A stretch of DNA of 64,000 bases from sequence record MK327931.1; one strand, given 5' to 3'. The DNA comes from Escherichia phage vB_EcoM_G17. Positions 3,493 to 39,806 of the stretch are shown here, piece by piece. The notes beneath the pieces were generated by a model. It was not told the origin of the DNA. It saw only the letters and a program-made list of their open reading frames with translations, and searched no databases. Every line of letters begins with the position of its first letter. The stretch's first letter is position 1. The position numbers and the translations under genes are program-made.

Positions 3493-4911
3493 TTAACCTA
3501 ATGCGTCAATAATACTGTTTGAGAACACTTCAACAGCACTCTCACGAATTTCTAAGATACGAGTATAATCATCACAAGTGTTTTTGTCAAATCTAAATTC
3601 AATAAACACTGGTAAGAACAGTGATGGCTCACCAGTACGCTTGTCGAATACAATGTCATTACACTCAACTGTAACCACTTTACCAATAAGTTCTTGCATT
3701 CTTTCCCAAATGGTTTTAAATGTCCATTCAGCATCTTTCTCTTTGATACCAGTACCCACATTAACTTTCAATGAACCACAAGCACTTTCCAGTTGTAAAG
3801 AACCTAGGCTTCCTTTACGTTTACCTTCACCTTCATTGAAACCAACAATACGTAAGTCCAGTTGCATTTTCAATTTCATTTTCAACTGCTTAGGTGAAGT
3901 ATGAGATTTCCAGATACCATCTTCACATTTCAGTACTGAACCCTCTTCACCTTCGTTCATTAGTTCACTATTGTACTCAAATGCTTCTTTGATGTTTAGA
4001 ACTTTACGGAATCCAACCATACGAACAAAATCACTATTGAGTTCGTTAATTGCATCTACTAAGATCTCGCGACGTTCTTTACGTTTTACATCCCATACAC
4101 CTTCACAAAATGCATCATATGGAACAACATCCCATAGAACGAATACAGTACGCATTGCTTCATTCTGACTGATGCTATCTTTACCAGCTTTCTGAATTAT
4201 ACCGTTGCCAGTAGTGCGTGGGAGAATGGTTTCTCCATCATTGTCCAGTACTACACCTTCCCCCATAAAGACTACACCACTACTAAAACGTTCATCTTTA
4301 CTTTGGATGATGTGAGCAAGACCTGCCATCTCACCATCACGACAACCCAGGAAGTCGTATAGTTTACCATTACGGGATGTAGAAGTTAATGAACCATTAA
4401 TGACAACGTGGTTTAAGTACTGACCATCCATTTTCACTTCTGATATAGCGTAACCATAATCTTTGAAGTTGATGTTCTTTGCAGTCTTTTTGTCAATCAA
4501 AGAACAACGCATATATGGTTCGTCTTTGATGAATCCTTTACCAAACACATCATTGCAGTTCTTCTCCTGAATACCACAATCAAGGTTCTTAGTGAGCATT
4601 CTACGTAGAACTTCCTGATCATCTTCAGATACAGAACCCAGTACTGAAGCAATGAAATCACGCCCCGCATTTCCTGTCACATCACGCTTGTAAATGCATT
4701 CTAGCTTATCAATTGCTTCATCTAACGTCATATGTTGATATACGTCATCAGCGGCAGGGAGCTTCTTATAGCCACTAACGATAGAAGGGTCTAGAGTATA
4801 TTTCAGTACTTTTTGTAAAGTTACATTATCTTTATTTTGTTCAAGAATAGCCTTTTTGCCCAGAGTACTGCTAGTATTTTTAATGCTTTCAAGAATTGCT
4901 AAAATGCTCAT
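3493..4911 (-). CDS. 30: ATP-dependent DNA ligase (T4 gp30-like)
   Basis: 472 aa; N-terminus 'ILAILESIKNTSSTLGKKAILEQNKDN' parallels T4 gp30 as recalled; adenylation motif 'KMDGQ'; 'EGVVLD'-type motif. Confidence 0.85.
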   Translation of the reverse strand: MSILAILESIKNTSSTLGKKAILEQNKDNVTLQKVLKYTLDPSIVSGYKKLPAADDVYQHMTLDEAIDKLECIYKRDVTGNAGRDFIASVLGSVSEDDQEVLRRMLTKNLDCGIQEKNCNDVFGKGFIKDEPYMRCSLIDKKTAKNINFKDYGYAISEVKMDGQYLNHVVINGSLTSTSRNGKLYDFLGCRDGEMAGLAHIIQSKDERFSSGVVFMGEGVVLDNDGETILPRTTGNGIIQKAGKDSISQNEAMRTVFVLWDVVPYDAFCEGVWDVKRKERREILVDAINELNSDFVRMVGFRKVLNIKEAFEYNSELMNEGEEGSVLKCEDGIWKSHTSPKQLKMKLKMQLDLRIVGFNEGEGKRKGSLGSLQLESACGSLKVNVGTGIKEKDAEWTFKTIWERMQELIGKVVTVECNDIVFDKRTGEPSLFLPVFIEFRFDKNTCDDYTRILEIRESAVEVFSNSIIDALG

Positions 4912-4922: not shown

Positions 4923-6125
4923 TTATAGATAATACTTTCCAATATAAAGTGGATTACTAATTGATAGTTGAACGTGACATGGTTTGTCTTGGTAGTAACG
5001 AGTGCTTGATGTTTTGCGTTCATTTGGTGGGAAGAATGGGGAACGATAGCCATTCCATGTACTAAATGATGAGTGTTCATTAATATCAACATCCATTACC
5101 ATAATCCCATTATCATCAATTTGAACTGGATATGCACTAAAGCGTTCAAATTTATCATTATAATGGATATTATAATCTCCACTACGCCCATAATAACTAC
5201 GCGTTGTATTATTACTTACACCAAAAAATACGCGATATGTTTGTTCATTATCTTTAGTCATAAATGGTACGTTCTCGTTGAAACGTCCATTATTCATAAG
5301 ATCATCAACATTTATTTCTTCGTATTTAATTTTAAGGTCTTTTGCTTTAAATGATTTATTGTGTACCAGTACTGGAATGTTAGATTCACCTAATGGGTTA
5401 TGTCTGTTTGTTCTATAGCTTTGCCAAAATTCATTAGCAAGTTTAATTTCTTCATCTGCCGTAGTCTTCTTATTCAAGAGTGCACGAGGTTCAAGATTGT
5501 AATTATCCAAACGTTGATTCAATGCATAAGTTCCACGAGTACTGTTAAAAAGTAAATGATAAACTGAACTTTTGTCGGGATATGCAAATTCTTTAGTTTT
5601 CTTTATACAAATTGCATGTACTTTACCGCAGTAATAGTAATCTTCTTTAAGATAAGTGAAACCATCACCAACTTTAAGACCTGCTACAGTTTCTTTTTGT
5701 TGTTCTTTTTTATTTTCTTTTTCAACTAACTTAGCAAACGTTTTTGTTTTACCATTAATTAATTCTAAGTTATTGTTGAAAAACATTGGGTCTACAAAAA
5801 CACCTTTGATTATATCGTTATTGATAATTAAATCATTCATGTTTTTTGCACTAATCATAAATTCAAATCCTTCTGGGTGACGGATCGTGAAATATGTTTC
5901 TCGTGCATGAGTTGTTAATTTATCAACTACACAAAATCCCGTAGTTGGAACGTTGTCAATATATAACGATGGAAGATTGTTCTTCTTTGCCCAGTACTCT
6001 GCTCTCTCTTTCTTTGTTTCAAACGCTTTTGTATGTGATTTTGTTGCATCGATAATAAAACCATCAACTTGGTTGTGGTTTACATAGGAACGTGCAACAA
6101 ATAACTTCTCTGGAAAATCCATCAA
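4923..6125 (-). CDS. hypothetical protein (400 aa), immediately upstream of ligase
   Basis: Long minus-strand ORF; no catalytic motif recognised. Confidence 0.55.
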   Translation of the reverse strand: MMDFPEKLFVARSYVNHNQVDGFIIDATKSHTKAFETKKERAEYWAKKNNLPSLYIDNVPTTGFCVVDKLTTHARETYFTIRHPEGFEFMISAKNMNDLIINNDIIKGVFVDPMFFNNNLELINGKTKTFAKLVEKENKKEQQKETVAGLKVGDGFTYLKEDYYYCGKVHAICIKKTKEFAYPDKSSVYHLLFNSTRGTYALNQRLDNYNLEPRALLNKKTTADEEIKLANEFWQSYRTNRHNPLGESNIPVLVHNKSFKAKDLKIKYEEINVDDLMNNGRFNENVPFMTKDNEQTYRVFFGVSNNTTRSYYGRSGDYNIHYNDKFERFSAYPVQIDDNGIMVMDVDINEHSSFSTWNGYRSPFFPPNERKTSSTRYYQDKPCHVQLSISNPLYIGKYYL

Positions 6126-6541
6126 ATTGTCCTCATTGTGCTGATTGCTTTTAATGTGTCAAACAATGCACCATATTTTACTTGCATTAGTTGATCACCA
6201 GCAGGAAGATTCATACGCATAACAGCCATGTCTTCAATCATTTCAGACGTACACAGTACTGCTACACAGGTAATAGCATCATTCAATCCAGCTTCATTGA
6301 ATTTGGCAAACGGAACTTTTCCCTGTTTGCTAAGGTTGTTATAATAAGAATTTAACTTATCATGTCCACCAGCATTTAGTACTACAATAGTTTCGTGTTC
6401 ATAGTACCATTCATCAATAATAGTACTGAAAGCAGTACCTTCATATTCTTTAATTAGTTTAACACCAGCATGGAATGCTTGAATACCAGCTTGGACACCT
6501 TGGCAGTACATATTAGTTAAGCAATACAATTTCATTTCCAT
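6122..6541 (-). CDS. hypothetical protein; weak resemblance to Pth2-type peptidyl-tRNA hydrolase
   Basis: 139 aa; 'GVQAGIQAFHAGV' and 'ETIVVLN...EAGLNDAITCVAV' loosely recall Pth2 motifs. Tentative. Confidence 0.4.
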   Translation of the reverse strand: MEMKLYCLTNMYCQGVQAGIQAFHAGVKLIKEYEGTAFSTIIDEWYYEHETIVVLNAGGHDKLNSYYNNLSKQGKVPFAKFNEAGLNDAITCVAVLCTSEMIEDMAVMRMNLPAGDQLMQVKYGALFDTLKAISTMRTI

Positions 6542-6759
6542 ACCTCTTGTTTTTCTACGTAGCCTTTCCCATCACAGTGTGGACAAGCATAAAAGCTGCG
6601 GTAATCTTCTGACGGTACTTGTTGTGTTCCATTACATGTAGGACATACTTTACGTGCACCAGAAATAATACGTTCATGGTGTTCAGCTTGTTTAGCTGAA
6701 TCAAAAATACGACCATCTTCAGTTTGGTATTTTTCTACCATAACTTGAATTACTTTCAT
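6532..6759 (-). CDS. small Cys-rich (zinc-finger-like) protein
   Basis: 75 aa; two CxxC pairs 'CPTCNG...CPHCDGKG' (DnaJ-type CxxCxG spacing). Confidence 0.5.
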   Translation of the reverse strand: MKVIQVMVEKYQTEDGRIFDSAKQAEHHERIISGARKVCPTCNGTQQVPSEDYRSFYACPHCDGKGYVEKQEVWK

Positions 6760-7044: not shown

Positions 7045-7803
7045 TTACCTTTTGAAACGATTGAATGAGTACTCATCTTTTTCTTTACGTAAGTATCTCA
7101 TCCCACCACTTTGTGGAGTAGCGAGAGTTAAGTCACCCGTCAAGAACTGACTATCAATCCAAATGCGATTACCGTAAATGAGTGGGTCTGTAACTGCTGT
7201 ATGTCCACTAAAGACACAATGCACTCCATCTAACTTAGGTGCATAATATGTATTATTAGTTCTACAATAATCGAATGTTTTTCTATCCCACAAGCACTTA
7301 TCAATTATATCAGCACTAAGTGATTTTGTCCCATTAACAAATCGTTCCCATGTTGTATATTCCAACGGAACTCCAGCATGAACTAACCCAATCTTCAATC
7401 CTCGGTGATTGATTTGGATAATCATAGGGAGATCCTTTAAGTACTGACGAAAGAATTGAATGCCTGTTCCTCCAACTTCATCAAGGAATTTATCACCACC
7501 ATTACTTATCCAACAATGATACCAATCTCGAAGTGTTTCCGAATCAACGCACATCATCTCATGATTACCCGCAATCATGTAACGATTTTCTCCGAACAAA
7601 AATTCAAAAAGGAGCTTTGAATTTTGTTCTCCACGGTCGATAATATCACCTACACTGAAAACATAATCATTGTGTGTAATACCAAATTCTTTCACTGTAG
7701 CATCCCATAGTTTACCATTACCATGCAAATCACCTACAATGTATAAATCTTTATCATCAGGTACAGTTACTTCTAAGAAGTGTTTCATTATTACTCCAAC
7801 CAT
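7045..7803 (-). CDS. PPP-family Ser/Thr phosphatase-like metallophosphoesterase
   Basis: Motifs 'GDLHGN', 'GDIIDRGEQ', 'GNHEMM' (GDxHG / GDxxDRG / GNHE). Confidence 0.75.
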   Translation of the reverse strand: MVGVIMKHFLEVTVPDDKDLYIVGDLHGNGKLWDATVKEFGITHNDYVFSVGDIIDRGEQNSKLLFEFLFGENRYMIAGNHEMMCVDSETLRDWYHCWISNGGDKFLDEVGGTGIQFFRQYLKDLPMIIQINHRGLKIGLVHAGVPLEYTTWERFVNGTKSLSADIIDKCLWDRKTFDYCRTNNTYYAPKLDGVHCVFSGHTAVTDPLIYGNRIWIDSQFLTGDLTLATPQSGGMRYLRKEKDEYSFNRFKR

Positions 7804-8042
7804 ATAATATTAGTGTGTTTAGTAACTTGTGTTCCAGCAAAAGAACCATCTTTAAGATAAGTATTAATTTTAAAACGCCATTCACCACCACTAATATACA
7901 TATCAGTAATAATATACTTTCCATACCCTCTGGAGTTTATTAATCGTACTTCTTGACCAATATATTTTGGCTTCAGATCATTTATAAAATCATCAGCCAA
8001 AGACATAAGATATCGCAAATGTGATAAGTCAGTGTTGAACAT
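7791..8042 (-). CDS. small hypothetical protein (KYxGKxV-like family)
   Basis: 83 aa; 'KPKYIGQEVRL'. Confidence 0.45.
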   Translation of the reverse strand: MFNTDLSHLRYLMSLADDFINDLKPKYIGQEVRLINSRGYGKYIITDMYISGGEWRFKINTYLKDGSFAGTQVTKHTNIIWLE

Positions 8043-8259: not shown

Positions 8260-8589
8260 TTATTCCTCATCATCCACTAAAACAAGATAATCCAAACTTA
8301 ACTCGGTATCTATGTAACAATCACAATTCAAGTACTCAATTTCAGCACCTATAGTTCTCCCATTCTTAAATATCTCAATGATTTTCATTCTAGTATTGGG
8401 ATTAATGTGTTCAATGTCGTATTCGTATTCAGGGTCAATATACTCACTTGTCATACGTTTGATGTATTGTTCCGAATATCGTACAGTTTTACCTATAAGA
8501 TCATTACTCAACGTCTGATAAAAATCATCTTGAATTTTGAATAATGACCTATAAAAAATATTATGTTGAATTAGTGGTTTCATTGACAT
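8260..8589 (-). CDS. small hypothetical protein (KYxGKxV-like family)
   Basis: 109 aa; 'NDLIGKTVRY'. Confidence 0.45.
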   Translation of the reverse strand: MSMKPLIQHNIFYRSLFKIQDDFYQTLSNDLIGKTVRYSEQYIKRMTSEYIDPEYEYDIEHINPNTRMKIIEIFKNGRTIGAEIEYLNCDCYIDTELSLDYLVLVDDEE

Positions 8590-9230
8590 TAATCACAACT
8601 TCCAGACGATGAACTTGAATCAGAACTAGAGCTATCATAGGAACAAGAATCAGAGGAAGAACTGCTGTGACGGCTATAATCACTGTAATCATCATTGTTG
8701 TAGATTGGTGATGTTACGATTGCTGCTGCGGTCGCTGCCGTTGCAATTTGTGCAGTATGGTCATGAACACCTAGTTGTGGTTCATCCTTAGATTTACCTT
8801 TGTTCTTACCTTTAGTGTAACGAGCTTTCTTTGCAGTTTTAGTATTTTTCTGTACTTTAGGAGCTTTTGGTTTCACATCTTCAACGACTGGAACTACATT
8901 CACTACAACTTTAGGATCAGTTTCTTCAAGTGTATTATACACTTTAACTTGCATTTGAACTTCAACTTCTTTAACTTCTTCTTTAACTTCTTCTTTAACT
9001 TCTGGAATAACTGTTTCTGGTGCTGGAGTGATTTTATCAAGTTCTTTAGTAATAAAGAAGCTTGTATTTTTCTCACCTAGCATAACAAGAAGACCAATGG
9101 CAATCACTGGACTTAGTACTGTACCAAGTACTACATAACCTAGAACACTTCGGTTATAGTTATATGCAAGCATACCAGAAATAATAATACCGATTACATA
9201 TGCACTGCTAAGAATAATTGGGGTTAACAT
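8589..9230 (-). CDS. membrane-anchored protein with EVKEEVK repeats and Ser/Asp-rich tail
   Basis: 213 aa; N-terminal TM segments, 'EVKEEVKEEVKEVE', basic patch, C-terminus 'SSSSSDSCSYDSSSSDSSSSSGSCD'. Confidence 0.55.
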   Translation of the reverse strand: MLTPIILSSAYVIGIIISGMLAYNYNRSVLGYVVLGTVLSPVIAIGLLVMLGEKNTSFFITKELDKITPAPETVIPEVKEEVKEEVKEVEVQMQVKVYNTLEETDPKVVVNVVPVVEDVKPKAPKVQKNTKTAKKARYTKGKNKGKSKDEPQLGVHDHTAQIATAATAAAIVTSPIYNNDDYSDYSRHSSSSSDSCSYDSSSSDSSSSSGSCD

Positions 9231-10194: not shown

Positions 10195-10550
10195 AAAAAT
10201 CTCACAGATTTAATATTACTGGTTACATGATTTACCCAAGTGTTATCGAACTTGTAAACAATTGTATTAAGTGATTTATGAAAATTAACCTCGCACACTA
10301 ATGCCTTGGAACCATTGATTGTACAGACCGTGGATGGTAAGTTGTTTGCTAATATCTCTTTTTCATCTAAACATAGTGAACTAATACAATCATAATAGAG
10401 AGGTTCAAGAACTTTTTCAGTACTGAGAAATTCAAAAGAAAGATCATCTATTAGTTTTATGTAATCGAATAAATTATGATAATATTCATTCATTGCAGAT
10501 CCTTTTAAATTTAGCATTATTAGAATATGTATATGAATGACCGAAATCAT
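10191..10550 (-). CDS. hypothetical protein (119 aa)
   Basis: Minus-strand ORF; 4-nt overlap downstream. Confidence 0.4.
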   Translation of the reverse strand: MISVIHIHILIMLNLKGSAMNEYYHNLFDYIKLIDDLSFEFLSTEKVLEPLYYDCISSLCLDEKEILANNLPSTVCTINGSKALVCEVNFHKSLNTIVYKFDNTWVNHVTSNIKSVRFL

Positions 10551-10740
10551 TTACACCATGTACATTTAGTACACCGTCACTGAAATAAATTCGATCAATA
10601 GTGAGTTCACGTTTATAATCCCAATCATCATACCAGCACAGAACACGAATACCTTTGTACTTTGTAGTTAAATCATTTTCTAATATAGTCAAGTAATCAA
10701 TATGACTTTTGAATATCTCTAAGTCCTGCTCAAACATCAT
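10486..10740 (-). CDS. small hypothetical protein (KYxGKxV-like family)
   Basis: 84 aa; 'TKYKGIRVLCW'. Confidence 0.4.
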   Translation of the reverse strand: MMFEQDLEIFKSHIDYLTILENDLTTKYKGIRVLCWYDDWDYKRELTIDRIYFSDGVLNVHGVNDFGHSYTYSNNAKFKRICNE

Positions 10741-10997
10741 TGTTCCTCGTATAATTCTATATCATCAACACCAACTTGGCGAATTGCAGTACTTCTGTTG
10801 AATGTATTTTTTTCAAACAAACATACTGTTAAACGTATTTCACACTTCAATGCACTATAATAAATCATATCAATAACACCATATGTTTCATACATTTCTA
10901 CGTATACATTTCGACCTAAATACTTTTCTTCTAAATCAGTAATTAGACTATTGATAAGATTACCTATCTGTGTTATATCTGTGTGAAATTTATCCAT
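10737..10997 (-). CDS. small hypothetical protein (KYxGKxV-like family)
   Basis: 86 aa; 'EKYLGRNVYV'. Confidence 0.45.
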   Translation of the reverse strand: MDKFHTDITQIGNLINSLITDLEEKYLGRNVYVEMYETYGVIDMIYYSALKCEIRLTVCLFEKNTFNRSTAIRQVGVDDIELYEEQ

Positions 10998-11185: not shown

Positions 11186-11220
11186 TAAAAGAAAAAGGGA
11201 CCAATATATGATCCCTTTTG
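11186..11220 (-). terminator. rho-independent terminator downstream of polynucleotide kinase gene
   Basis: Stem AAGGGA / TCCCTT (11195-11200 / 11212-11217); T-run follows on minus strand (plus 11191-11196 A-run). Confidence 0.5.
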
Positions 11221-11222: not shown

Positions 11223-12155
11223 TTAGAAATTTCCTTCAGCCACTTGGAAAACTTTCAACCCAAGTAGCTTACGCCACATGAATACAACTTGATCGCGGTC
11301 ATCATATACCTTTTTAACATCGTAATGATCAACCACATTTTTCATGTACAGGTCGAATTTTACAACATCATCAGGACGTTTATCATCGATATCTCGCATA
11401 AACAATGCATCGTAAGGAACACCCCAATTCTTAAGCCACTGTTCGGTATCAGCACGACACCCTTCAGTACGCCCACTCATGACGATAATCTTGCGTTTAT
11501 GAAAAACTGCTTCAGCGATAATAGACAAAATAACTTCTTCATCAGGTGTATCCTGAAGAACAGTACTTTCATCGTAAGGATTACGACCCCATTTATGAGC
11601 AAGAGTTCCATCGATATCAACGATGATAGCAGCTTCGCGTGAATTACCATAGTAACCAATGTGTAATGCCTTACTATAATAGTACGTATCTGCCATTGTG
11701 TCAATGATATCATCTTGTACTGAACGCTCACGCTGGAGGTTATATTTCTTACAAAGTTTTACGAACTCTTTAATCTTAAAGAATTCATGAACATCTGCAC
11801 CACGGTCTTCATTAGGTACAAAATCATCATAGAAGTTCTTTTCTTTGTAATCATAACCATTATCTTTAGCCCATACTTTCCAGAGATTACGGAAATGTTG
11901 TTTAAGGTTTGTATCGGATATGATGATGTTCCAACCATTCTCTGCTGCTGAATTTGCTGCACTGAACTGTAAATTAGTTACGTACTGCTCATTAGCATCG
12001 TTGAATTTGTAAGCATCATGTGACCCAGCCATAGATTCACGAATATCATCACGGTTGATGTTGATAGTCTTGGATTTGGCATTTTTAATTTCTTGAACTG
12101 CCCATGTGGTTTTACCACACCCAGGTAATCCAACTGTTAGTGTAATAGTTGGCAT
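11223..12155 (-). CDS. pseT: polynucleotide 5'-kinase / 3'-phosphatase (T4 PseT-like)
   Basis: 310 aa; N-terminal P-loop 'GLPGCGKTT'; C-terminal HAD motif 'IVDIDGTLA'. Confidence 0.85.
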   Translation of the reverse strand: MPTITLTVGLPGCGKTTWAVQEIKNAKSKTININRDDIRESMAGSHDAYKFNDANEQYVTNLQFSAANSAAENGWNIIISDTNLKQHFRNLWKVWAKDNGYDYKEKNFYDDFVPNEDRGADVHEFFKIKEFVKLCKKYNLQRERSVQDDIIDTMADTYYYSKALHIGYYGNSREAAIIVDIDGTLAHKWGRNPYDESTVLQDTPDEEVILSIIAEAVFHKRKIIVMSGRTEGCRADTEQWLKNWGVPYDALFMRDIDDKRPDDVVKFDLYMKNVVDHYDVKKVYDDRDQVVFMWRKLLGLKVFQVAEGNF

Positions 12156-12167
12156 TATTACTCCTTG

Positions 12168-12482
12168 TTACTCAATGAATTCTACATCTTCGAGTTTGTG
12201 CCATCCTCTTGAAAGGTTTCTTGTTCCGTTATTGTATTCAGTGTATACAAAGCATTCACCATTTACTAAATTACCAATAGCAGTACGCGATACTTTAACA
12301 TCAAGAATTATAGTACTGAACCATTCTCTGATTGTATGATCCCAGCATTTAACTTTACATCCAATCAATGTTTTCTTAAAATCGAAAACGTAATCTTCGA
12401 CCATTGATTCGACAGATTCTATTAGTTCCTTTTCAATGTACTTTAACTTTTCGATCCTCTCAAATGCAAGTTCTTTATTCAT
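12168..12482 (-). CDS. small hypothetical protein (KYxGKxV-like family)
   Basis: 104 aa; 'KKTLIGCKVKCW'. Confidence 0.45.
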   Translation of the reverse strand: MNKELAFERIEKLKYIEKELIESVESMVEDYVFDFKKTLIGCKVKCWDHTIREWFSTIILDVKVSRTAIGNLVNGECFVYTEYNNGTRNLSRGWHKLEDVEFIE

Positions 12483-12488
12483 ATGTCC

Positions 12489-12743
12489 TCAATTATCTAG
12501 AACATCCACTATCAAACAAGCTTCAATAACGAAACAATCATCTAATTCAAAGAGTAATTGATAGTCATCAGAAAACTTCACTTTAGTAATGTAAGCACTT
12601 TCAATTCCACCACTATGATAAGAACTATATAAAATACATTTACCTGTATATTCCTTACGGATACGACTAAATTCTTCATATAAATGAGTAATAAACGTAT
12701 CCGCAGTTTTGTTGTAGTATTTTAGGTCACTTACTGTGCTCAT
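12489..12743 (-). CDS. small hypothetical protein (KYxGKxV-like family)
   Basis: 84 aa; 'KEYTGKCILY'. Confidence 0.45.
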   Translation of the reverse strand: MSTVSDLKYYNKTADTFITHLYEEFSRIRKEYTGKCILYSSYHSGGIESAYITKVKFSDDYQLLFELDDCFVIEACLIVDVLDN

Positions 12744-12957
12744 TAACTTTTCCTACTCCAAATCGTTTGGAGATTTTCACAAGTACAGATTCATCACAAC
12801 GAATACTAGCAGTATCATTGGATGAACTGTACTTTAATGGGGTCCACTGTAATTGAGATTCTTCTAGGAACTTGATACATCTGAAGTAATCTTTCAGAGA
12901 AAGAAATTTAACTACTGACATATCCTGAACAATACTATGCTGAACTTCAACTTTCAT
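12727..12957 (-). CDS. small hypothetical protein (76 aa)
   Basis: Minus-strand ORF. Confidence 0.4.
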   Translation of the reverse strand: MKVEVQHSIVQDMSVVKFLSLKDYFRCIKFLEESQLQWTPLKYSSSNDTASIRCDESVLVKISKRFGVGKVNEHSK

Positions 12958-12966
12958 ATGAACTCC

Positions 12967-13224
12967 TTATAGTGGATCAAATTTATTTTCACGTTTCGAT
13001 GTATAGCGAGTTACATCATGTATTCTCGGCTTAACACCTTTTGGTTTCCTTTTCTTCTTGTATTCAGTACTACTACATCCGAAGGTATTCTCGATTCGTT
13101 TCTTACTTATCTTCACACCTTTCATTGAGCGTTTGTGCTGTAATTCATCGATTTCTTCTTGTATTTTCCTGAACTCAGTCGGAGAAAGGGAACCGTCATT
13201 TTTATACTTAGGTTTAGCCATCAC
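12967..13224 (-). CDS. small highly basic protein (possible nucleic-acid binding)
   Basis: 85 aa, Lys/Arg-rich ('KKRKPKGVKPR'). Confidence 0.45.
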   Translation of the reverse strand: MMAKPKYKNDGSLSPTEFRKIQEEIDELQHKRSMKGVKISKKRIENTFGCSSTEYKKKRKPKGVKPRIHDVTRYTSKRENKFDPL

Positions 13225-13251
13225 TTCTCCTTGTGCTTAGGCTAGATAGTA

Positions 13252-14394
13252 CTAAAAATCCTTTAGTACAATTTTCATGTATTTTATAAGAGTCTCTTTG
13301 TAATCAACTTTCTTATTGTTATACATTGCAAAGGCCAAGCCCTGACGATTCAGTTCATTAGTTAAACACTCCTGAACCTTCATTGCGAATTCCTTTCGCT
13401 CCAAGTGCTTGTGTTCCTTGACGAAGCTTTCTACTTCATCTTGTAATGCATTATAGCACGAAAATACCAATTGTTCCATTCTTAATATCTTTTGCATAGC
13501 ATATTCATCAGTACTGAACAATTGTTTTAAATCATCACTTGAACCATTTAATACTGCTTCATATAAATGAGAATCAATAATAATACTATCTTTTGTAAGA
13601 TGTAATGAACTGTACCAGTCAGTCTTTATTTTACACATTGTCCCATTATTTAGGATGCACACAAAACCCTCAATATCAAGCATTTTATGAACTTCCTCCA
13701 CGCTTTCACGGAAGGTATTTCGTACCGGAAAAGTGTGATGAATATCTTTTCCAGTCATATTAGTACTGTACTGTGCAAGACATGGAAACTTATCACGTAG
13801 TGCTTTACCACATAGCAACTCACCACTCACACGATGACGAACGTTCAGTACAAACAGTTGTTCTACCTGATATGGTAATACAATTCGGTACTCTGGGCTT
13901 GTATACTCCATATTAACTGTGTAACCTAAACGTTCCGCTTCGTCGATGTACTGATACAAATTCTGGTTCTCGTTAATAAGTCGAGTACTGTTAATCGCAT
14001 GGTCAGAATACAATGCAGTATGTGATTTACAACGAATCTCACCATCATTATCACGGTAAGTACTGATAATCGAACCATCCAACTTAGGCATCACTACCGC
14101 AATGTCATCGCATGTGGTGTTAGCAGGGAACATTGTAGCAGGATTCTCGTAAGCATTGAAGAACTTTTTCATTGTACGTGCTGCACAACGTATCATTTCA
14201 CCTTCTTCATCAATTTCCCACATAGAGCCACGGGTTTCCAACGCATTTGGTTGCATGAAATCAGTGTATGATGCTAGACGATAACTGAATACACGATACG
14301 TGCCACCAGCAGGACTTTTATGATCCACATAAAAGAATGCATCGTTTGTATTACATAAGTGCATTAAATCTTCATATATTTGCAAAAGGGTCAT
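13252..14394 (-). CDS. rnlA: RNA ligase 1 (T4 RnlA-like)
   Basis: 380 aa; N-terminus 'FFYVDHKSPAGGTYRVFSYRLASYTDF...ALETRGSMWE' parallels T4 RnlA as recalled; 'KLDGS' adenylation motif; 'KIKTDWYSSLHLTK'. Confidence 0.85.
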   Translation of the reverse strand: MTLLQIYEDLMHLCNTNDAFFYVDHKSPAGGTYRVFSYRLASYTDFMQPNALETRGSMWEIDEEGEMIRCAARTMKKFFNAYENPATMFPANTTCDDIAVVMPKLDGSIISTYRDNDGEIRCKSHTALYSDHAINSTRLINENQNLYQYIDEAERLGYTVNMEYTSPEYRIVLPYQVEQLFVLNVRHRVSGELLCGKALRDKFPCLAQYSTNMTGKDIHHTFPVRNTFRESVEEVHKMLDIEGFVCILNNGTMCKIKTDWYSSLHLTKDSIIIDSHLYEAVLNGSSDDLKQLFSTDEYAMQKILRMEQLVFSCYNALQDEVESFVKEHKHLERKEFAMKVQECLTNELNRQGLAFAMYNNKKVDYKETLIKYMKIVLKDF

Positions 14395-16566: not shown

Positions 16567-17304
16567 TTAGAAATATATCATACCCATCAATTCAGAATCG
16601 GCGGGGCGAGTATAACCTTGCTTCTTAACTTTAAAATAGAATGATTCATGCTCTTCTAAATTATAACGTTTTTTCAAGCAACGAGTGTATGTCTGACAAT
16701 TTGGGTGAACCCATTCATAAATGTGAATGCCATTTTCGTCATAACCATTTATACTACAACGATTTCCTTCATGCTTCATGAAGTTTTTACTTTTTTCAGT
16801 AAATTCTTTCACTGTAGTTGTATATGGGGATTTGTATTCAAAAGGAACTTCAGTCATACGAAAATAATAGTATTCTTCGTCTTCATCATATCCCAAGAGC
16901 ACTGTGTTAGTTTCACGTACATTGTAATGATTCTTACTTTTTAATTCATTTTCGTATATATCTTTCAGTACTTCTGCAAAAACTTCCTCGCTTGATGCAT
17001 TAGGATTAGATACACCTGATACTCGGCGTTCAATAATAAAATCAGTGAATTTACGGTCTTCGGCAATATCTTCGTTCATATAAAGACTAACAAACTTATC
17101 CTTATATGTCTTTACACTATATTGCTTACTTTGCACTTCACTATAAACATCTGCTAACATATTCTCCTGACCACACTGCACACCACTTACAGAATAAGCA
17201 CATGCATGTTCAGCCATTACTGATGTTAACATTTGGAAATTTGCCATGTTTAATTCATTCGCCATCTCTGTAGCGAAACGGATACGGTCAAGCATTTCAC
17301 ACAC
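16567..17304 (-). CDS. hypothetical protein (245 aa)
   Basis: Minus-strand ORF; no motif recognised. Confidence 0.5.
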   Translation of the reverse strand: MCEMLDRIRFATEMANELNMANFQMLTSVMAEHACAYSVSGVQCGQENMLADVYSEVQSKQYSVKTYKDKFVSLYMNEDIAEDRKFTDFIIERRVSGVSNPNASSEEVFAEVLKDIYENELKSKNHYNVRETNTVLLGYDEDEEYYYFRMTEVPFEYKSPYTTTVKEFTEKSKNFMKHEGNRCSINGYDENGIHIYEWVHPNCQTYTRCLKKRYNLEEHESFYFKVKKQGYTRPADSELMGMIYF

Positions 17305-31068: not shown

Positions 31069-31650
31069 TTAATCCATCATAAGTGGGATAATTGCCCATA
31101 TCTTTTTCATAATCATATCTTCAGTAAAAACAAATGTTTTAGGAGCAGTATATGATATTGACACACCAAATGGAAGTTTGATTGCATCATCAATTATATT
31201 ATGAATATCAAACCATGTTTTAACATAATCATACGGTGGAAGTTCATGAATTGTACTTAACTGAAAGTAATTCTCTTCACCAAAATCACTATATTCAATT
31301 TCACAAATTTTAGTGAATTGATGATTCCATTTAGATATAATACTATTTTTATTATTGTACATAGTAGTTCTATGCATAAAACCATTTTTGCTAGTATGAT
31401 TTGATATTACGTTTTCTTCAATGTCAGTATCTATTTTAAAATTCATATCAAAGTTGTAGTACGGACTTGACGATTCTTTGAATTTTAAATGTAAATTGCG
31501 ATTGTTATTAATTTCAATTTCAATACAAAACACATCTGAATCAAAACGATTAAACTTGTAATCGTTATCTTCCGGTAGATTCTGTATTTTTTTCATAATA
31601 CTAAGCATAGGGTGTACTACACTTTTAATAAAATCATTTGTTATTTTCAT
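31069..31650 (-). CDS. FQxS-family paralogue
   Basis: 193 aa; 'EENYFQLSTIH'. Confidence 0.55.
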   Translation of the reverse strand: MKITNDFIKSVVHPMLSIMKKIQNLPEDNDYKFNRFDSDVFCIEIEINNNRNLHLKFKESSSPYYNFDMNFKIDTDIEENVISNHTSKNGFMHRTTMYNNKNSIISKWNHQFTKICEIEYSDFGEENYFQLSTIHELPPYDYVKTWFDIHNIIDDAIKLPFGVSISYTAPKTFVFTEDMIMKKIWAIIPLMMD

Positions 31651-32143
31651 AGTATTCCTTTAGAACTTTATATGATTCAACAATACTATCTTGTGTATAA
31701 TTTGAACTATATACAACAGCACTTGTTTTAGTTGACCATAGATATGACATAAAGGTTATAACACTACTACATGGACTTAATGTATTGTTTTGAAATTCAA
31801 TTTCTTCAATGTTATCAGTACTGGTATAGATGAATTGGAAAGTACCCATTGATTTATTGGACAGCGATACTATAGTAGAATCCGTACCAGGACTATACAT
31901 GAATGTCTCATTACTAATTGAACTATCATTAGTATATGATGGTTTGGGAATATAAATCAAACGCATGATATCGCGTTCAAGACCTGACTTATTACTTTCC
32001 ACCAAAGAAATCATATCTATATTTGATATATGTTCAACACTGACATGGAACTTTTTGTCGAGAATCACATCTCCATGAGAATTTTTATATGAAGACAAAA
32101 TCTCATACATCTCAACTAATTCGCGTGCATTTAATAAACTCAT
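31634..32143 (-). CDS. hypothetical protein, possible FQxS-family member
   Basis: 169 aa; 'EEIEFQNNTLS'. Confidence 0.45.
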   Translation of the reverse strand: MSLLNARELVEMYEILSSYKNSHGDVILDKKFHVSVEHISNIDMISLVESNKSGLERDIMRLIYIPKPSYTNDSSISNETFMYSPGTDSTIVSLSNKSMGTFQFIYTSTDNIEEIEFQNNTLSPCSSVITFMSYLWSTKTSAVVYSSNYTQDSIVESYKVLKEYYENNK

Positions 32144-32568
32144 GTTTTGTCTCTTAATGAAAGAATATCCTTAGTATAAACTGAAACAGAAATATGATTA
32201 TATTTCATCATTAATTTATACACATAAGAAGCTAGTACTAAATCGTAAATTAATTTAGTATTATACAGTACTTGGTATTGTAACGCAAGTGAATCAATAT
32301 CATCTTTACTTTCAATATCCAGAAATGTACCGAAAAATGTAGTACCGTAGAGATGAAAAGTGGAATTAATGCAATCAATGCATTCATTGTCCAATAGAGT
32401 AGATGCTGATGCCCTCGGTGAATCCCAAATAGTCACTGCGTGTATGCCCTCAACGAACAAATCTATCCATATTTTGTGTCGTTGTCTTTTTTTTGTTTTA
32501 TAATTTTCTGGATTTGAAAGTGTAGTTTCAATTATATCCCATATGTACAAACAATCATCTCTTGTCAT
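32140..32568 (-). CDS. hypothetical protein (142 aa)
   Basis: Minus-strand ORF in the array; motif weak ('LALQYQVLY'). Confidence 0.45.
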   Translation of the reverse strand: MTRDDCLYIWDIIETTLSNPENYKTKKRQRHKIWIDLFVEGIHAVTIWDSPRASASTLLDNECIDCINSTFHLYGTTFFGTFLDIESKDDIDSLALQYQVLYNTKLIYDLVLASYVYKLMMKYNHISVSVYTKDILSLRDKT

Positions 32569-33146
32569 TATATAACCTTATCCATTGCTGCATTTAATGC
32601 TTTTAAACGATCTACATTCAAATTATTGAAGATGTACGTTCCTAACATGTGGAAATCGAACTGGTTCTTTTTGTATTCATGATAAATTAAACTACAAAAA
32701 ATAATAGTACTAAGAACCTCTTCAGGTATAACAGTGCTCATCTGGAACAGTTCTTCTTCAACTGTACTTGAATCTGGATTGATAGATTTTAACACATACT
32801 CTTCATCACCGAATAGTACTTTAATATTATATAAAACACCAACAGTACTAATATGGAATGGGTGGTGTGAAAAACTTCCATCATCCTTAATTTGTATATC
32901 GGTTCTAATCTCACACTCTTCATTACTTTTACTTTTATTTTTTACAATACAAATATTTCTGGCCCCAGAAATAGTAAGAATACCGTGGTCGTAATATTCA
33001 TTTGACCAACATTTGGATGAAATTGATACATCACGGATGAGATATTGTTTTTCAATTTCTTTCGCACTACCAACAATTGATAGCATTTTTTTACTGATAT
33101 CATATAATAACTGATGGCGTTCTGTCATATAACTATAAGCGTTCAT
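32568..33146 (-). CDS. FQxS-family paralogue
   Basis: 192 aa; 'EEELFQMSTVI'. Confidence 0.55.
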   Translation of the reverse strand: MNAYSYMTERHQLLYDISKKMLSIVGSAKEIEKQYLIRDVSISSKCWSNEYYDHGILTISGARNICIVKNKSKSNEECEIRTDIQIKDDGSFSHHPFHISTVGVLYNIKVLFGDEEYVLKSINPDSSTVEEELFQMSTVIPEEVLSTIIFCSLIYHEYKKNQFDFHMLGTYIFNNLNVDRLKALNAAMDKVI

Positions 33147-33717
33147 ATTTTTCCTTAACAGATTCTATATTTTGAAGTAGTGTATTCAGAACATCAGTCT
33201 TGCAATTGATAAAATCATTGTACATAACTAGTTCACCACAATCAAGAATTTTTGCAGTATCGTAACAAAGCATTAAGTACTCGAATTCTTTGTAATTGTC
33301 CAACAAGGATTTCTGGAAAATGAATGCATCTCGAATATCTTCACTTTGGTCTAATTCTGGTGGAACATCCAACCCAATAAATCCATCATCTTCACTGAAA
33401 TTAGATTCTACAATTTTATTCATTTTTTCATGTAATGCATTCGCAAATACCATATTAGAAGAAATAGAACCAATACGTTCACGATTTCTGGATGTGCGAA
33501 TGTACATAGTAATCGTATCCCATGAACTTTTAATTTTTTTAGAAAATTCATAAGTTTTATATACATCCAACTGAACTGATCCAAAACGATGTTTGGATTT
33601 GTTTTCAATTTTCAGTCGATAATCATCAAATTCAACAATTTCTGTAATGTCATGAATCTCTGAAAGTTCTGCAATGTCATGCATGAGTCTCAAAATTTTA
33701 GTTCTGATATGGTTCAT
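33133..33717 (-). CDS. FQxS-family paralogue
   Basis: 194 aa; 'DAFIFQKSLLD'. Confidence 0.55.
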   Translation of the reverse strand: MNHIRTKILRLMHDIAELSEIHDITEIVEFDDYRLKIENKSKHRFGSVQLDVYKTYEFSKKIKSSWDTITMYIRTSRNRERIGSISSNMVFANALHEKMNKIVESNFSEDDGFIGLDVPPELDQSEDIRDAFIFQKSLLDNYKEFEYLMLCYDTAKILDCGELVMYNDFINCKTDVLNTLLQNIESVKEKYERL

Positions 33718-34292
33718 TGTGCATCCTCGAATTTAACAGGTACATGTTCATTAATGAAATTCTTAAGAGCCTGTACTAAATCCTCTAATTCTTTTGTACT
33801 GTATTTTAAAATAGTTTTAAAGTGAATCAAATCTTTTCTTTCCATGATCTTTGGAATTTTATATGCTAACTCTAAACAGCGTACAGTACTGGCATCATAC
33901 AAAAGGTTTGCGTTGAACATTAGAACATTGTATTCATCAGATGAAATTTTATAATTATATGTATCAATCACTTCATGTGTGTATAAATTCTTATACACAA
34001 TTTTATTCTCACTGAAGTTTGAGCAAACACACAGATGATCGTTGTAAAATGAAGAACGATAATCTTGTTTACGTTGTACATCTGCTATGATTTGTAATAC
34101 TGTATATTTTTCTTCAGAATCCAACTCAATGTTTGCATAACTGCTCGCAGTTTCAGATACAAGGATATTGATGTTATATTTCTCATTAACTTTAATGTAC
34201 TGGCGTGAGCCAGTATCAGGAATGAACTTAAAACAATGCTTCAGAAGTAATGTGACTTCTTTAATTAATTCAGTACTCATAGATTCCTCCAA
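33714..34292 (-). CDS. hypothetical protein, possible FQxS-family member
   Basis: 192 aa; 'YNVLMFNANLLYD'. Confidence 0.45.
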   Translation of the reverse strand: MEESMSTELIKEVTLLLKHCFKFIPDTGSRQYIKVNEKYNINILVSETASSYANIELDSEEKYTVLQIIADVQRKQDYRSSFYNDHLCVCSNFSENKIVYKNLYTHEVIDTYNYKISSDEYNVLMFNANLLYDASTVRCLELAYKIPKIMERKDLIHFKTILKYSTKELEDLVQALKNFINEHVPVKFEDAQ

Positions 34293-34344
34293 CTCTAGTT
34301 AAAATCAAGTATAACACACCTGAATGCTCTTGTAAAGCCATAAA

Positions 34345-34367
34345 CACAAAAAGACCCATACGGGTCT
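34345..34367 (-). terminator. rho-independent terminator immediately after the stop of gene 34368..34934
   Basis: Stem AGACCC / GGGTCT (34352-34357 / 34362-34367), 4-nt loop; U-rich run on both strands (possibly bidirectional). Confidence 0.55.
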
Positions 34368-34934
34368 TTATTTTGGTAAAACACTGTCGATGTACGCTAG
34401 AACCTCATCTCGAAGGTACGTTCCATCTATAGTTAGGTAATAGTTCATGGGAATATCACTCCCAACCTTCTCATAAATTTTCATACATGATATCACATCT
34501 TCATCACAAATGGTACTCAATTGAAAAATAACTTCATCGGTTAACGGTACGATATCATGTTTAGATAGGGGATTTGTATTTTCATTCAACACAATATTAA
34601 TCAAGTTAGGAGTATTCTTTGACGAAATATAACGATGCTTACTACGAATTACCATTCTCGATAGTGAAATACTGGAACTCCATCTTGGATCAACATCTTC
34701 ATATGATAACGATATTAACATCTCGTGAAAATCTTGAAATTTCATTGACGCATAATATGTTTTATCCTCACCGTACATACCAAATGATTTAAATTCAATA
34801 TCCCCCACTTTGTATGTATCGACATCATTATTTGAGAACTTTATTAAACTATTAATTAGTCTAATTAGAATATCATCTTTATCCATTCTTAAATAACTCC
34901 AAGTGCATGTCGTATAAATCTCTGAAGTCTTCAT
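34368..34934 (-). CDS. FQxS-family paralogue
   Basis: 188 aa; 'DEVIFQLSTIC'. Confidence 0.55.
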   Translation of the reverse strand: MKTSEIYTTCTWSYLRMDKDDILIRLINSLIKFSNNDVDTYKVGDIEFKSFGMYGEDKTYYASMKFQDFHEMLISLSYEDVDPRWSSSISLSRMVIRSKHRYISSKNTPNLINIVLNENTNPLSKHDIVPLTDEVIFQLSTICDEDVISCMKIYEKVGSDIPMNYYLTIDGTYLRDEVLAYIDSVLPK

Positions 34935-35442
34935 AGAAATCTTTTTCTTCGAGAATATTCTTTAAACTGGGAATCTCTTCCATAATTTCATCTATATCTG
35001 ATTCTATGAAAAATCCTGATGGATTATCGTAGTTTTGTAACAGATAACTGAAAGTAATAATGTAAAGAAGTTCATTAGGATTGTGAATTAAACTTAGCTG
35101 GAACATAGCTGATTCTAAATCTGATTCAGTACTAAGATCAACCCAACGTGAATTTCTATAATCAATTCGTACTTGACTTGTATTTGGATTCCATGTGAAG
35201 CAATGTGTACCAATATGACCTATACAACCAACCCTTGTACTGTCTCCGGTATCAACACTGATATCAACAAATAGTTCAATACCGATATCGGTTGATGTTA
35301 CACGACCTTTTTTCAGAAATAAATCATTATCCTTACGAAATTGTTTGGATGAAAGAGTGTCAATGATGCACATCAATGTTTTTGCAAATGCAACACAATG
35401 ACGAAATTCAAGCCTATGAAATTGGTAATCATTGATATTCAT
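34879..35442 (-). CDS. FQxS-family paralogue
   Basis: 187 aa; 'ESAMFQLSLIH'. Confidence 0.55.
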   Translation of the reverse strand: MNINDYQFHRLEFRHCVAFAKTLMCIIDTLSSKQFRKDNDLFLKKGRVTSTDIGIELFVDISVDTGDSTRVGCIGHIGTHCFTWNPNTSQVRIDYRNSRWVDLSTESDLESAMFQLSLIHNPNELLYIITFSYLLQNYDNPSGFFIESDIDEIMEEIPSLKNILEEKDFYEDFRDLYDMHLELFKNG

Positions 35443-35981
35443 AATTCAACCCTCAATATTTTATCAGCAATAGATATAACCTTATCATTGAATACATTAC
35501 CAATCTCAATCCTTATATACATAGCAGGTGGAATCTTTCCTTGTAGTGAATAATATGTTTGTATACCTAAGTACTCATTATCTGATAATGAAAATTTGAT
35601 TCTCTCCATATCAATGTCTGTTACTGGTAAATCTATCATTTCATAATGGTAGTCAACGTTTTCATTGTATATTTTATCGAAGTAATTTGAATAATCACTA
35701 CTAATGTAGATGCTATCATCACGAATAATTACTTTATAATCAGAAGGTTCAAATTTATCTTTACAGGAAAAGAATGCATCATCTATTTTCTCTTCTCTTA
35801 TGCCAAATAACATTCTACCATCATATTTTACATCAAGAATACTACCTAGTATATTAATGGTACAATGCTCATCAATATTATGATGTAATGAACGTTTTTT
35901 GTATTTTGGGTTAATGAAAATTTTCATTAATTTTATACAAATTTCAGTAATGCATTTTACATTCTCATTTTCTATGTACAT
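35439..35981 (-). CDS. hypothetical protein (180 aa)
   Basis: Minus-strand ORF in the array; motif weak. Confidence 0.45.
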   Translation of the reverse strand: MYIENENVKCITEICIKLMKIFINPKYKKRSLHHNIDEHCTINILGSILDVKYDGRMLFGIREEKIDDAFFSCKDKFEPSDYKVIIRDDSIYISSDYSNYFDKIYNENVDYHYEMIDLPVTDIDMERIKFSLSDNEYLGIQTYYSLQGKIPPAMYIRIEIGNVFNDKVISIADKILRVEL

Positions 35982-36468
35982 TAAAAGCCCTCTTTAATTC
36001 TTTTACATTTTTAATGAATACTTTCATTGCAGAAATCTCAAAAGATAATGTATTAAATTTGCAGTACTTTTTAAAGTACGACATAATATATAACATTTTG
36101 AGTTCTTTTTCTGTATAAATTAAACTGTTTTGAAAGTAACTTTCTTCGGAAATGTCCGTAAGAAAAGAATAAAATGTATTTTGCTTGTGCACAATTTTAA
36201 TACTATCAGACCAAGATTTGTATGAAACGTAATCAGTACGTGCAAAATCATATAGTGAATTAGATGTATCTGTGTATGTTTCCGAGAACACAATCTTATA
36301 TATCTTATCTTGAATTCGAGAACATATGTACCTATGGTCATCTGTCTCACTGATTGCAATGTATCTATGGAGTAAATCTTTATGAGCATTGATGAACTCA
36401 AACACTTCTAAACACTCCCTAGCGAACTTCATAGTTTCTCTGTACTTTCGGTTCATTAGTCTCTCCAA
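35965..36468 (-). CDS. FQxS-family paralogue
   Basis: 167 aa; 'EESYFQNSLIY'. Confidence 0.55.
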   Translation of the reverse strand: MERLMNRKYRETMKFARECLEVFEFINAHKDLLHRYIAISETDDHRYICSRIQDKIYKIVFSETYTDTSNSLYDFARTDYVSYKSWSDSIKIVHKQNTFYSFLTDISEESYFQNSLIYTEKELKMLYIMSYFKKYCKFNTLSFEISAMKVFIKNVKELKRAFNVHRK

Positions 36469-36869
36469 ACTTTACCAGGGAAGTGTTTCTCGTAGTACTC
36501 ATCATCACTTAACATATAATCAGGAGTTTCTACTTCTATGGTTTTGAAGATTGTTTCTGGAATGTGTGTGACTTTATTGGGTTGTACTTTATGTTCGCGT
36601 AAAACCTTCTGTATCGCTCCTAGACGTTGTAAATCGATACATGTAGGAAAGACTAAGCTGTACTGAAATAACTCATCAGGGGTCATTATAGACACATCTT
36701 TAGCTTGTTTGATTTGATAATTAGTACTAATGAATATATCAAATCCTTGTACAGCATTATAGCTTACATAGGTTGTTTTATTTTTGTCAATAGGAGCACT
36801 TAAACGATATCCATATATCCCGTGTTGGTCAACAACACAACGTTGCATAATTTTAATCATTTCTAACAT
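36456..36869 (-). CDS. FQxS-family paralogue
   Basis: 137 aa; 'PDELFQYSLVF'. Confidence 0.55.
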   Translation of the reverse strand: MLEMIKIMQRCVVDQHGIYGYRLSAPIDKNKTTYVSYNAVQGFDIFISTNYQIKQAKDVSIMTPDELFQYSLVFPTCIDLQRLGAIQKVLREHKVQPNKVTHIPETIFKTIEVETPDYMLSDDEYYEKHFPGKVWRD

Positions 36870-37215
36870 AATTTACCTCATATGTATTGTAACACCACGG
36901 TTTAACAATATCGATTTGTATATCATTTGCTTCATGAAAATGTTTAAGTACCTTCTGGTATTCCATTATTTCGTACACATCTTCAGTACTGATAGTGCTC
37001 TGCTGAAACAATTCCTCTTCTGATAAAGTACTATAATCAGGGATTTTTATTTCTGAATATATATCATTTATCTTTCCATTATATTGATAAATCTGGATAT
37101 AAAATTGATTGTATTCTGGAATATAGGTCACATAATGGTTGTGGTTGATTACATATCTTGAAACAAAGTATTCAGTACCATCAGTCATGTACTGAATTGT
37201 TGTCGTATTTTTCAT
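36853..37215 (-). CDS. FQxS-family paralogue
   Basis: 120 aa; 'LSEEELFQQSTIS'. Confidence 0.55.
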   Translation of the reverse strand: MKNTTTIQYMTDGTEYFVSRYVINHNHYVTYIPEYNQFYIQIYQYNGKINDIYSEIKIPDYSTLSEEELFQQSTISTEDVYEIMEYQKVLKHFHEANDIQIDIVKPWCYNTYEVNYVRND

Positions 37216-37675
37216 TCAAATAATCCACGCATTTATAGTATACTACTAAATCTAAAAAGAATCGTTGTTTGTATTTGTAATGATGAAGTAGTGCACCATA
37301 AAATAACATAGCATTAAGTACTTTTACATCATGAATACAAGAACCCTGAAAGTACATTTCCTCTGACATGAACACTAAATCATCATACTTAACAAATACT
37401 GCTTCTCTATAATTGTCAATATTAATCTTCAAATCAGACCCAGGGCAATATGAAATGTATCCGGCTTTGTAATGAAAGTCATTGTCATCAAAGTACTCGG
37501 CATAGATTTGATTACCTCTTTCATTAGTAAACGCAAGTCTTCCTTTGGATGAACTAAACTCATCGTATTCGAACATACCACCAAATGGGTCAGGACTTCT
37601 GAACTCCTTTGCAATGCGATAGATATTTTCTGCAAATTCTAAAACACCATCGTAATCATATTCTGTAGTAATCAT
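37181..37675 (-). CDS. FQxS-family paralogue
   Basis: 164 aa; 'EEMYFQGSCIH'. Confidence 0.55.
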   Translation of the reverse strand: MITTEYDYDGVLEFAENIYRIAKEFRSPDPFGGMFEYDEFSSSKGRLAFTNERGNQIYAEYFDDNDFHYKAGYISYCPGSDLKINIDNYREAVFVKYDDLVFMSEEMYFQGSCIHDVKVLNAMLFYGALLHHYKYKQRFFLDLVVYYKCVDYLNEKYDNNSVHD

Positions 37676-39801: not shown

Positions 39802-39806
39802 TTGTT

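Follow-up and report, generated by a model that had tools for sequence, protein, structure and literature searches.

Gene layout of the probable repair locus

The genome of Escherichia phage vB_EcoM_G17 (sequence record MK327931.1) was analysed over a stretch of 64,000 nucleotides (nt), here called the window, and our subject is a set of six genes within it that extends from an RNA ligase 1 (RnlA) to a polynucleotide kinase/phosphatase (Pnkp). An earlier note, made from the letters of this DNA, had read the set as a transfer RNA (tRNA) repair module in which the two enzymes are separated by four small open reading frames (ORFs). All six ORFs are indeed present on the minus strand, and the motifs that had been pointed out were located at residues 9-17 (GLPGCGKTT) and 180-184 (DIDGT) of Pnkp and at residues 104-108 (KLDGS) of RnlA. 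Positions 11000-14700 of the window match Escherichia phage Sharanji (OR545507.1), an Asteriusvirus jumbo phage of 350,079 base pairs (bp) with E. coli K-12 as its isolation host, at 100% identity, and 121Q, slurp01, E9.1 and others at 97-99.8%. A window position x corresponds to x + 303,630 in the Sharanji record. Listed in the order of the minus strand, with Sharanji gene product (gp) numbers and lengths in amino acids (aa), the features of the locus are:

13252..14394, minus strand: RNA ligase 1 of the T4 RnlA family, gp521, 380 aa (Pfam, NCBIfam, PHROG and PDB matches)
12967..13224, minus strand: o85, a small basic protein, gp520, 85 aa (phrog_15306)
12727..12957, minus strand: o76, with beta-beta-alpha-beta-beta-alpha topology, gp519, 76 aa
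12489..12743, minus strand: o84, an acidic ORF and a lineage-specific insert, gp518, 84 aa (no PHROG or Pfam match)
12168..12482, minus strand: o104, in a variable slot, gp517, 104 aa (phrog_31355)
11223..12155, minus strand: polynucleotide 5'-kinase/3'-phosphatase of the T4 PseT/Pnkp type, gp516, 310 aa (Pfam, PHROG and PDB matches)
11193..11219, minus strand: terminator-like hairpin with a T-run, an 11-pair stem followed by TCTTTT

In the Sharanji record the start of o85 is annotated at window position 13221. The six genes are co-directional and are separated by gaps of 6-27 nt or joined by a 17-nt overlap, while the hairpin at 11219..11193 begins 4 nt past the Pnkp stop codon. Since the co-directional genes with their short gaps or overlap are followed by a hairpin with a T-run, the six genes are probably co-transcribed, as a unit that probably ends at the hairpin; in the record of phage UE-S1, a terminator is annotated at the corresponding position. 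A scan for sigma-70 promoters was uninformative, as it returned 16 sites against 20.3 expected from shuffled sequences. A simple gene call on the window gave 153 ORFs, all but two of them (151/153) on the minus strand, at a guanine-plus-cytosine (GC) content of 30-35% and with a GC skew that was negative throughout. The co-directional ORFs together with the uniform skew indicate that the repair genes sit within a long same-strand array of mostly small genes.

The kinase/phosphatase and the RNA ligase

Homology searches with the product of 11223..12155, which the earlier note had called a PseT-like kinase/phosphatase, returned a full-length T4-type Pnkp. The HAD phosphatase domain is complete and matched Pfam HAD_PNKP over profile positions 2-143 of 143 (8.6e-44, 149.6 bits), while the P-loop kinase domain matched Pfam AAA_33 (3.6e-13), with GLPGCGKTT as its Walker A motif (GxxGxGK[ST]). 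Furthermore, the protein matched phrog_505 'polynucleotide kinase' (9.8e-96) and aligned at full length, over residues 2-310, with the solved structure of T4 Pnk (1ltq; 2.7e-40). Catalytic residues were compared by alignment with the T4 proteins translated from NC_000866. In the kinase domain K15, T16 (S16 in T4), D36 and R39 are kept; mutagenesis in the Shuman laboratory is said to have found D35, R38 and R126 of T4 Pnkp to be essential for the kinase. For the HAD (DxDxT) phosphatase domain, for which D165, D167, R176, R213, D254, D277 and D278 of T4 served as reference residues, the residues kept are D180, D182, T184, R191, S227, R229, D262, K266, D285 and D286. The jumbo-phage Pnkps differ from that of T4 in a lineage-specific insertion of approximately 20-35 residues in the kinase domain.

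In the Sharanji record gp516 (WNN14797.1) carries the label 'zeta toxin'. This label is wrong: Pfam Zeta_toxin scored 20.2 bits, under its cutoff of 22.3 bits, as against the 149.6 bits of HAD_PNKP, and it probably arose from a weak P-loop match.

The ligase at 13252..14394 likewise proved to be what the earlier note had proposed, a member of the RnlA family. It exceeded the cutoff of the NCBIfam equivalog TIGR02308 'T4 RnlA family RNA ligase' (293.2 bits against 242.25) and matched both Rnl1 domains in Pfam, namely the nucleotidyltransferase domain (RNA_lig_T4_1, 1e-15) and the C-terminal tRNA-specificity domain (T4_Rnl1_C, 6.6e-17, aa 268-379), as well as phrog_562 (3.5e-109) and the structure of T4 RNA ligase 1 (PDB 2c5u, 1.1e-56). 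It therefore groups with Rnl1 rather than with DNA ligases, and a separate adenosine triphosphate-dependent DNA ligase, distinct from RnlA, is encoded at 3493..4911. Motif I is kept as K104-L-D-G-S, with K104 corresponding to K99 of T4, and E163, E242-G243, K255 and K257 align with E159, E227-G228, K240 and K242. According to work by Wang, Ho and Shuman from 2003, R54, K75, F77 and K119 are reportedly the essential residues specific to Rnl1; R55, K77 and F79 occupy the first three of these positions here, and the fourth is taken up below.

Both enzymes thus share their domain architectures with T4 Pnkp (PseT) and Rnl1 (RnlA, gp63), align at full length with the T4 structures and have nearly all catalytic residues in common with them. 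They are, however, only 34-40% identical to the T4 proteins, and the genome that encodes them is that of a 350-kb Rak2-like jumbo phage, not of a member of the Tevenvirinae. The closest counterparts are found in other Rak2-like phages (RaK2 rnlA/pseT, 121Q gp438/gp443, PBECO4 gp129/gp125, phAPEC6 and CBB_83), where orthologues of 45-99% identity lie at an orthologous locus. The bacterial Pnkp/Hen1 system is also a multi-gene repair cassette with an extra protein beside the healing and sealing activities; the likeness is one of concept only, and the enzymes described here are of the T4 type, not of the bacterial Pnkp type.

Small proteins encoded between the enzymes

The earlier note had listed all four intervening ORFs as candidates for accessory repair factors. 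Two of them, o85 and o76, are conserved together with the enzymes across genera and remain candidates, whereas o84 and o104 are specific to Asteriusvirus and replaceable. The 85-aa protein is as basic as had been noted, with an isoelectric point (pI) of 10.1 and 24 lysine and arginine residues.

The five lineages examined comprise four jumbo-phage genera and an unclassified phage of Xanthomonas, and in each of them o85 and o76 lie between RnlA and Pnkp. The orthologues are gp128 and gp127 in PBECO4, g061 and g063 in fHe-Yen9-04 (Yersinia), ORF465 and ORF466 in RaK2 (Klebsiella), and genes 130 and 132 in XaC1 (Xanthomonas), and in each of these phages the o85 orthologue follows immediately downstream of RnlA. 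Compared with fHe-Yen9-04, RaK2 and XaC1, respectively, the window protein o76 is 69, 66 and 56% identical and o85 is 57, 36 and 49% identical; the corresponding values are 59, 64 and 49% for RnlA and 59, 65 and 45% for Pnkp. The stop codon of o76 overlaps the start of Pnkp in fHe-Yen9-04 and XaC1.

Because these genomes are broadly collinear, shared ancestry could explain a conserved position, and a background conservation test was therefore run. In this test, all 64 genes in 0-32 kb of the window were searched by tblastn, at an expect value (E) below 1e-3, against a syntenic stretch of 50 kb in each of fHe-Yen9-04 and XaC1. Gene order was collinear in both phages. Among approximately 30 ORFs shorter than 130 aa at 6.5-20 kb of the window, only o76 and o85 had a detectable homologue in fHe-Yen9-04 or XaC1, and o76 showed the highest identity of any gene tested (69% to fHe-Yen9-04 and 61% to XaC1). 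It was followed by the ORF at 16567..17304 (66 and 59%), the Clp-type protease (66 and 45%), the DNA ligase (63 and 51%), RnlA (59 and 49%) and Pnkp (58 and 43%). The ORF at 16567..17304, one of the best conserved of the region, encodes a 245-aa protein without a Pfam match and is located some 2 kb upstream of RnlA.

Directly on either side of the cassette, no conservation of the kind shown by o85 and o76 is seen, which identifies RnlA-o85-o76-Pnkp as the conserved unit; within it, variable inserts separate o76 either from o85 or from Pnkp. The co-occurrence of o85 and o76 and their adjacency to the repair enzymes exceed the background synteny, and both are strongly constrained proteins of the cassette.

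The two proteins have few relatives. A tblastn search with o85 retrieved 61 phage records, all of them Rak2-like without exception, and only five clusters were found in a database of 5.8 billion proteins. A word-indexed search with o76 returned relatives at an identity of at least 62% only, and a hidden Markov model (HMM) profile search of 1.84 billion representatives returned three true clusters; five further matches were long repetitive proteins, which we judged to be spurious. Fold searches gave a generic ACT-like match only, and searches of Pfam and NCBIfam detected neither a Hen1-like methyltransferase nor any other domain of these databases in the intervening ORFs. The papers on UE-S1, phAPEC6 and CBB do not mention the conserved pair of o85 and o76. 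We regard its conservation as a modest new lead.

The other two ORFs behave differently. In PBECO4, the flanks of which are 98-99% identical, positions 12156-12739 with o104 and o84 are replaced by a single ORF, gp126, which is a relative of o104 (32-34% identity) and leaves o84 without a counterpart. At high identity o104 occurs in 12 phage records, all of Escherichia Asteriusvirus, and a diverged variant of 34-38% identity occurs in 19 records, that of PBECO4 gp126 included; o84 was found in only 12 phage records, again all of Escherichia Asteriusvirus. These patterns point to o84 and o104 as lineage-specific, replaceable inserts in a variable slot. Pairwise BLAST among the ORFs of the window detected no paralogues of o85, o76, o84 or o104. 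When o104 was compared with a family of small ORFs at 7791..8042, 10486..10740, 10737..10997 and 42294..42602, hhalign gave a probability of 66% (E = 5.5e-5 over 28 columns), and its HMM score of 13.2 bits was weak, with the best decoy at 12.0 bits. It probably belongs to this paralogous family of small proteins scattered through the window. Membership of o84 in the same family was rejected (hhalign 2%, with o76 as a negative control at 0.2%).

The arrangement of the locus recalls that of T4, where rnlA, alc, pseT.3, pseT.2, pseT.1 and pseT follow each other on one strand with rnlA upstream, as in our cassette, and the order of rnlA, small genes and pseT is common to T4, fHe-Yen9-04, RaK2 and XaC1. 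As T4 has it too, the linkage of ligase and kinase must be old. In T4, too, exactly four genes lie between the enzymes: the transcription inhibitor gene alc, two spanin genes and pseT.1, which has no known function, none of them known to act in RNA repair. Orthology between these and the four ORFs of the cassette was considered and rejected, as BLASTP returned nothing below E = 1. The shared count of four is coincidence or slot conservation, not orthology, and since the T4 slot holds unrelated genes, position alone is weak evidence of a function in repair.

Proposed heal-and-seal repair and competing readings

Considering the above, we judge it likely, at a probability of roughly 0.8, that these genes form an RNA repair cassette of the T4 'heal and seal' type within the early-gene array of Sharanji, an Asteriusvirus jumbo phage. 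In the pathway that we propose, a host anticodon nuclease, such as PrrC, would cut the anticodon loop of a tRNA, leaving a 2',3'-cyclic phosphate at one end and a 5'-OH at the other. In Pnkp, the HAD domain, with D180 as its nucleophile, would then take off the phosphate, whether cyclic or 3', and the P-loop domain (K15, D36, R39) would add a phosphate to the 5'-OH. Rnl1, adenylylated on K104, would pass its adenosine monophosphate to the 5'-phosphate and seal the break, with its C-terminal domain presumably providing the preference for tRNA. The enzymatic activities, the tRNA substrate, the counter-defence role and the co-transcription of the genes are inferred here from the T4 paradigm, and it is reasonable to suppose, as the earlier note did, that the phage faces a PrrC-type defence.

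Much of this has been anticipated for related phages. The RaK2 record names the orthologues rnlA and pseT, the records of 121Q, PBECO4, UE-S1 and others call them RNA ligase and polynucleotide kinase, and anti-Prr activity or tRNA repair has been suggested in the phAPEC6 and CBB papers (PMC7247149). As the genes were thus annotated and interpreted in near-identical genomes, both the core finding and its reading were already known. In addition, work with a T4-like phage on clinical isolates of E. coli found its PseT orthologue to be conditionally important (bioRxiv 10.1101/2025.11.20.689424), which fits a host-specific role in countering defence.

Several observations weigh against this interpretation. 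We found no tRNA genes in the window that could serve as repair substrates or decoys, and nothing within the window identifies the target RNA. Two of the catalytic positions deviate from T4: R126 of T4 Pnkp aligns inexactly, to Q141, and K119 of T4 Rnl1 is replaced by H125. For the former, the adjacent column holds R142, an arginine that is invariant in all four jumbo-phage Pnkps, which makes a one-residue shift of the alignment a plausible and likely cause; for the latter, histidine is also found in fHe-Yen9-04 and RaK2, and lysine in XaC1. Moreover, T4 RnlA has a second role in tail-fibre attachment, and on E. coli K-12 the phage does not tolerate insertions in the N-terminal domain of its rnlA, whereas the C-terminal domain is dispensable; the study that found this does not attribute the essentiality to any anticodon nuclease (bioRxiv 10.1101/2025.11.20.689424). 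Taken together, the tail-fibre role and the requirement for the N-terminal domain on K-12 imply that the ligase may be kept partly for reasons other than repair. Carried further, the argument could be that the ligase is retained mainly for tail-fibre attachment, as in T4 gp63, and Pnkp for general processing of nucleic acid ends, with the adjacency of the two representing inherited synteny rather than a unit aimed at a host nuclease. The family name in PHROG and RefSeq, 'RNA ligase and tail fiber protein attachment catalyst', and the ancient linkage shared with T4 are in agreement with such a scenario. We nevertheless consider it improbable, given that the C-terminal tRNA-specificity domain of RnlA is retained, that nearly all ligase and healing residues checked are kept apart from the two positions just discussed, and that the RnlA-Pnkp linkage survived where nearly all other small genes turned over.

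Further proposals concern additional components. The idea that Rnl1 and Pnkp have dedicated partners in o76, with its ACT-like fold, and o85, basic and possibly RNA-binding, is a tentative one; it would extend the T4-type repair reading to a four-component repair system, not exclude that reading, and the part of the two proteins could be to link the enzymes to each other, to regulate them or to keep the tRNA halves together. In its favour are the position of both between the enzymes in every lineage examined, the conservation of o76 above that of either enzyme and of every other gene in 32 kb, amid some 30 small neighbours without a detectable homologue, the overlap of o76 with Pnkp in two of the phages, and the high pI of o85; on the other side stand the unrelated genes in the T4 slot. 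Slightly more doubtful is the stricter form, according to which RnlA-o85-o76-Pnkp would be a four-gene repair cassette of Rak2-like jumbo phages with o76 and o85 as obligatory partners of the enzymes. Possible roles of the two proteins would then include the coupling of healing to sealing, the recognition of a particular damaged tRNA and the shielding of repaired tRNA from renewed cleavage. Far less probable is that the ORF at 6122..6541, which the earlier note had described as Pth2-like and placed among the candidate accessory factors, belongs to the module as a tRNA-repair or tRNA-recycling factor. The resemblance itself stood up, as the protein genuinely has the Pth2 alpha/beta fold, but its membership in the module is probably wrong: it lies 4.7 kb from Pnkp with approximately 15 ORFs in between, and a homologue is absent from the syntenic region of XaC1 that keeps RnlA-o85-o76-Pnkp. 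Homologues were found in 269 phage records of several groups, including Rak2-like phages, large myoviruses of Vibrio and Aeromonas, and Salmonella, Proteus and Escherichia phages of approximately 140-150 kb.

The relationship of this protein to Pth2 was visible by fold comparison and not by sequence search of the PDB, in which neither the single sequence nor a profile matched Pth2. The Pfam PTH2 score was marginal (25.2 bits against a threshold of 23) and that of the NCBIfam Pth2 equivalog was below its cutoff (20.5 bits against 126). Identity to archaeal and eukaryotic Pth2 is 18%, the PPGT loop is shortened or deleted, and in place of the TGxLKLL tail the protein has two additional helices at its C-terminus. 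On alignment with the sequences of three solved Pth2 structures, Q17, E83 and N87, which are invariant in a phage family of seven sequences, occupy the positions of K18, D86 and T90 of Sulfolobus solfataricus Pth2, which are reportedly its catalytic residues according to work by Fromant et al. in 2005; if so, this also speaks against a Pth2-type recycling function in the module. As a Pth2-fold protein with altered residues at these presumed active-site positions that is widespread in large myoviruses, it constitutes a separate candidate for a tRNA-directed activity. The start of its gene is overlapped by an ORF at 6532..6759 for a 75-aa protein with two CxxC pairs, which resembles the DnaJ CXXCXGXG motif and the Anti-TRAP zinc-binding motif at scores under the Pfam cutoffs and is labelled 'chaperone protein' in 121Q. 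The ORF at 4923..6125, which has the Pth2-like gene on one side and that for the DNA ligase on the other, encodes a 400-aa protein (phrog_14061) with 26-29% identity to counterparts in fHe-Yen9-04 and XaC1; at the matching place XaC1 has four consecutive genes of approximately 350-385 aa, which are possibly paralogues.

Some further observations concern the surroundings. For a 213-aa protein without a Pfam match, encoded at 8589..9230, hydrophobic segments are predicted near the N-terminus; it also contains a KEEVKEEVKEVE repeat and has a tail rich in serine, aspartate and cysteine (SSSSSDSCSYDSSSSDSSSSSGSCD). On the minus strand, 31 small ORFs of 52-90 aa that all resemble one another are arranged in tandem at 53941..62082, with 40950..41337 in addition; they stand nearly back to back and form one BLAST-connected family, and in this region, over 56-60 kb, the adenine-thymine (AT) skew falls to about -0.22. 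A second paralogous family, with 28 members of 53-193 aa, extends on the same strand over approximately 25 kb (31069..55706), and the two families together account for more than one third of the ORFs in the window. Within about 45874 to 64000 the window passes beyond the end of the linear Sharanji record and goes on at its position 1, with 100% identity to positions 1-17,628 of that record, which shows that the stretch was taken from the record in circular form. The annotation of fHe-Yen9-04 lists, approximately 20 kb beyond the cassette in the downstream direction, Sir2, a Nudix hydrolase, a nicotinamide phosphoribosyltransferase and a second 'RNA ligase', which is short (149 aa). This set, linked to nicotinamide adenine dinucleotide (NAD), comprises g102-g106 (46619..49448 of the compared stretch) and g098 (43716..45194), and in the compared stretch of XaC1 only the nicotinamide phosphoribosyltransferase is annotated (XaC1_162, 43048..44532). 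The NAD-linked set, which lies outside the window, features in a published discussion of RNA repair by phages (PMC9503650).

The enzymes of the cassette themselves add nothing new, and the practical correction is that the label of gp516 should read polynucleotide kinase/phosphatase. On the T4-type repair reading, the Asteriusvirus jumbo phages, which are in development for E. coli therapy, would carry the classic countermeasure against abortive infection by anticodon nucleases, and the genes for this countermeasure would bear on the prediction of host range. As constrained proteins amid ORFs with a fast turnover, o76 and o85 provide a short, testable list of candidates for new RNA-repair cofactors. 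If o76 and o85 were indeed obligatory partners in a four-gene cassette, it would represent a version of the T4 pathway that includes components without a T4 counterpart.

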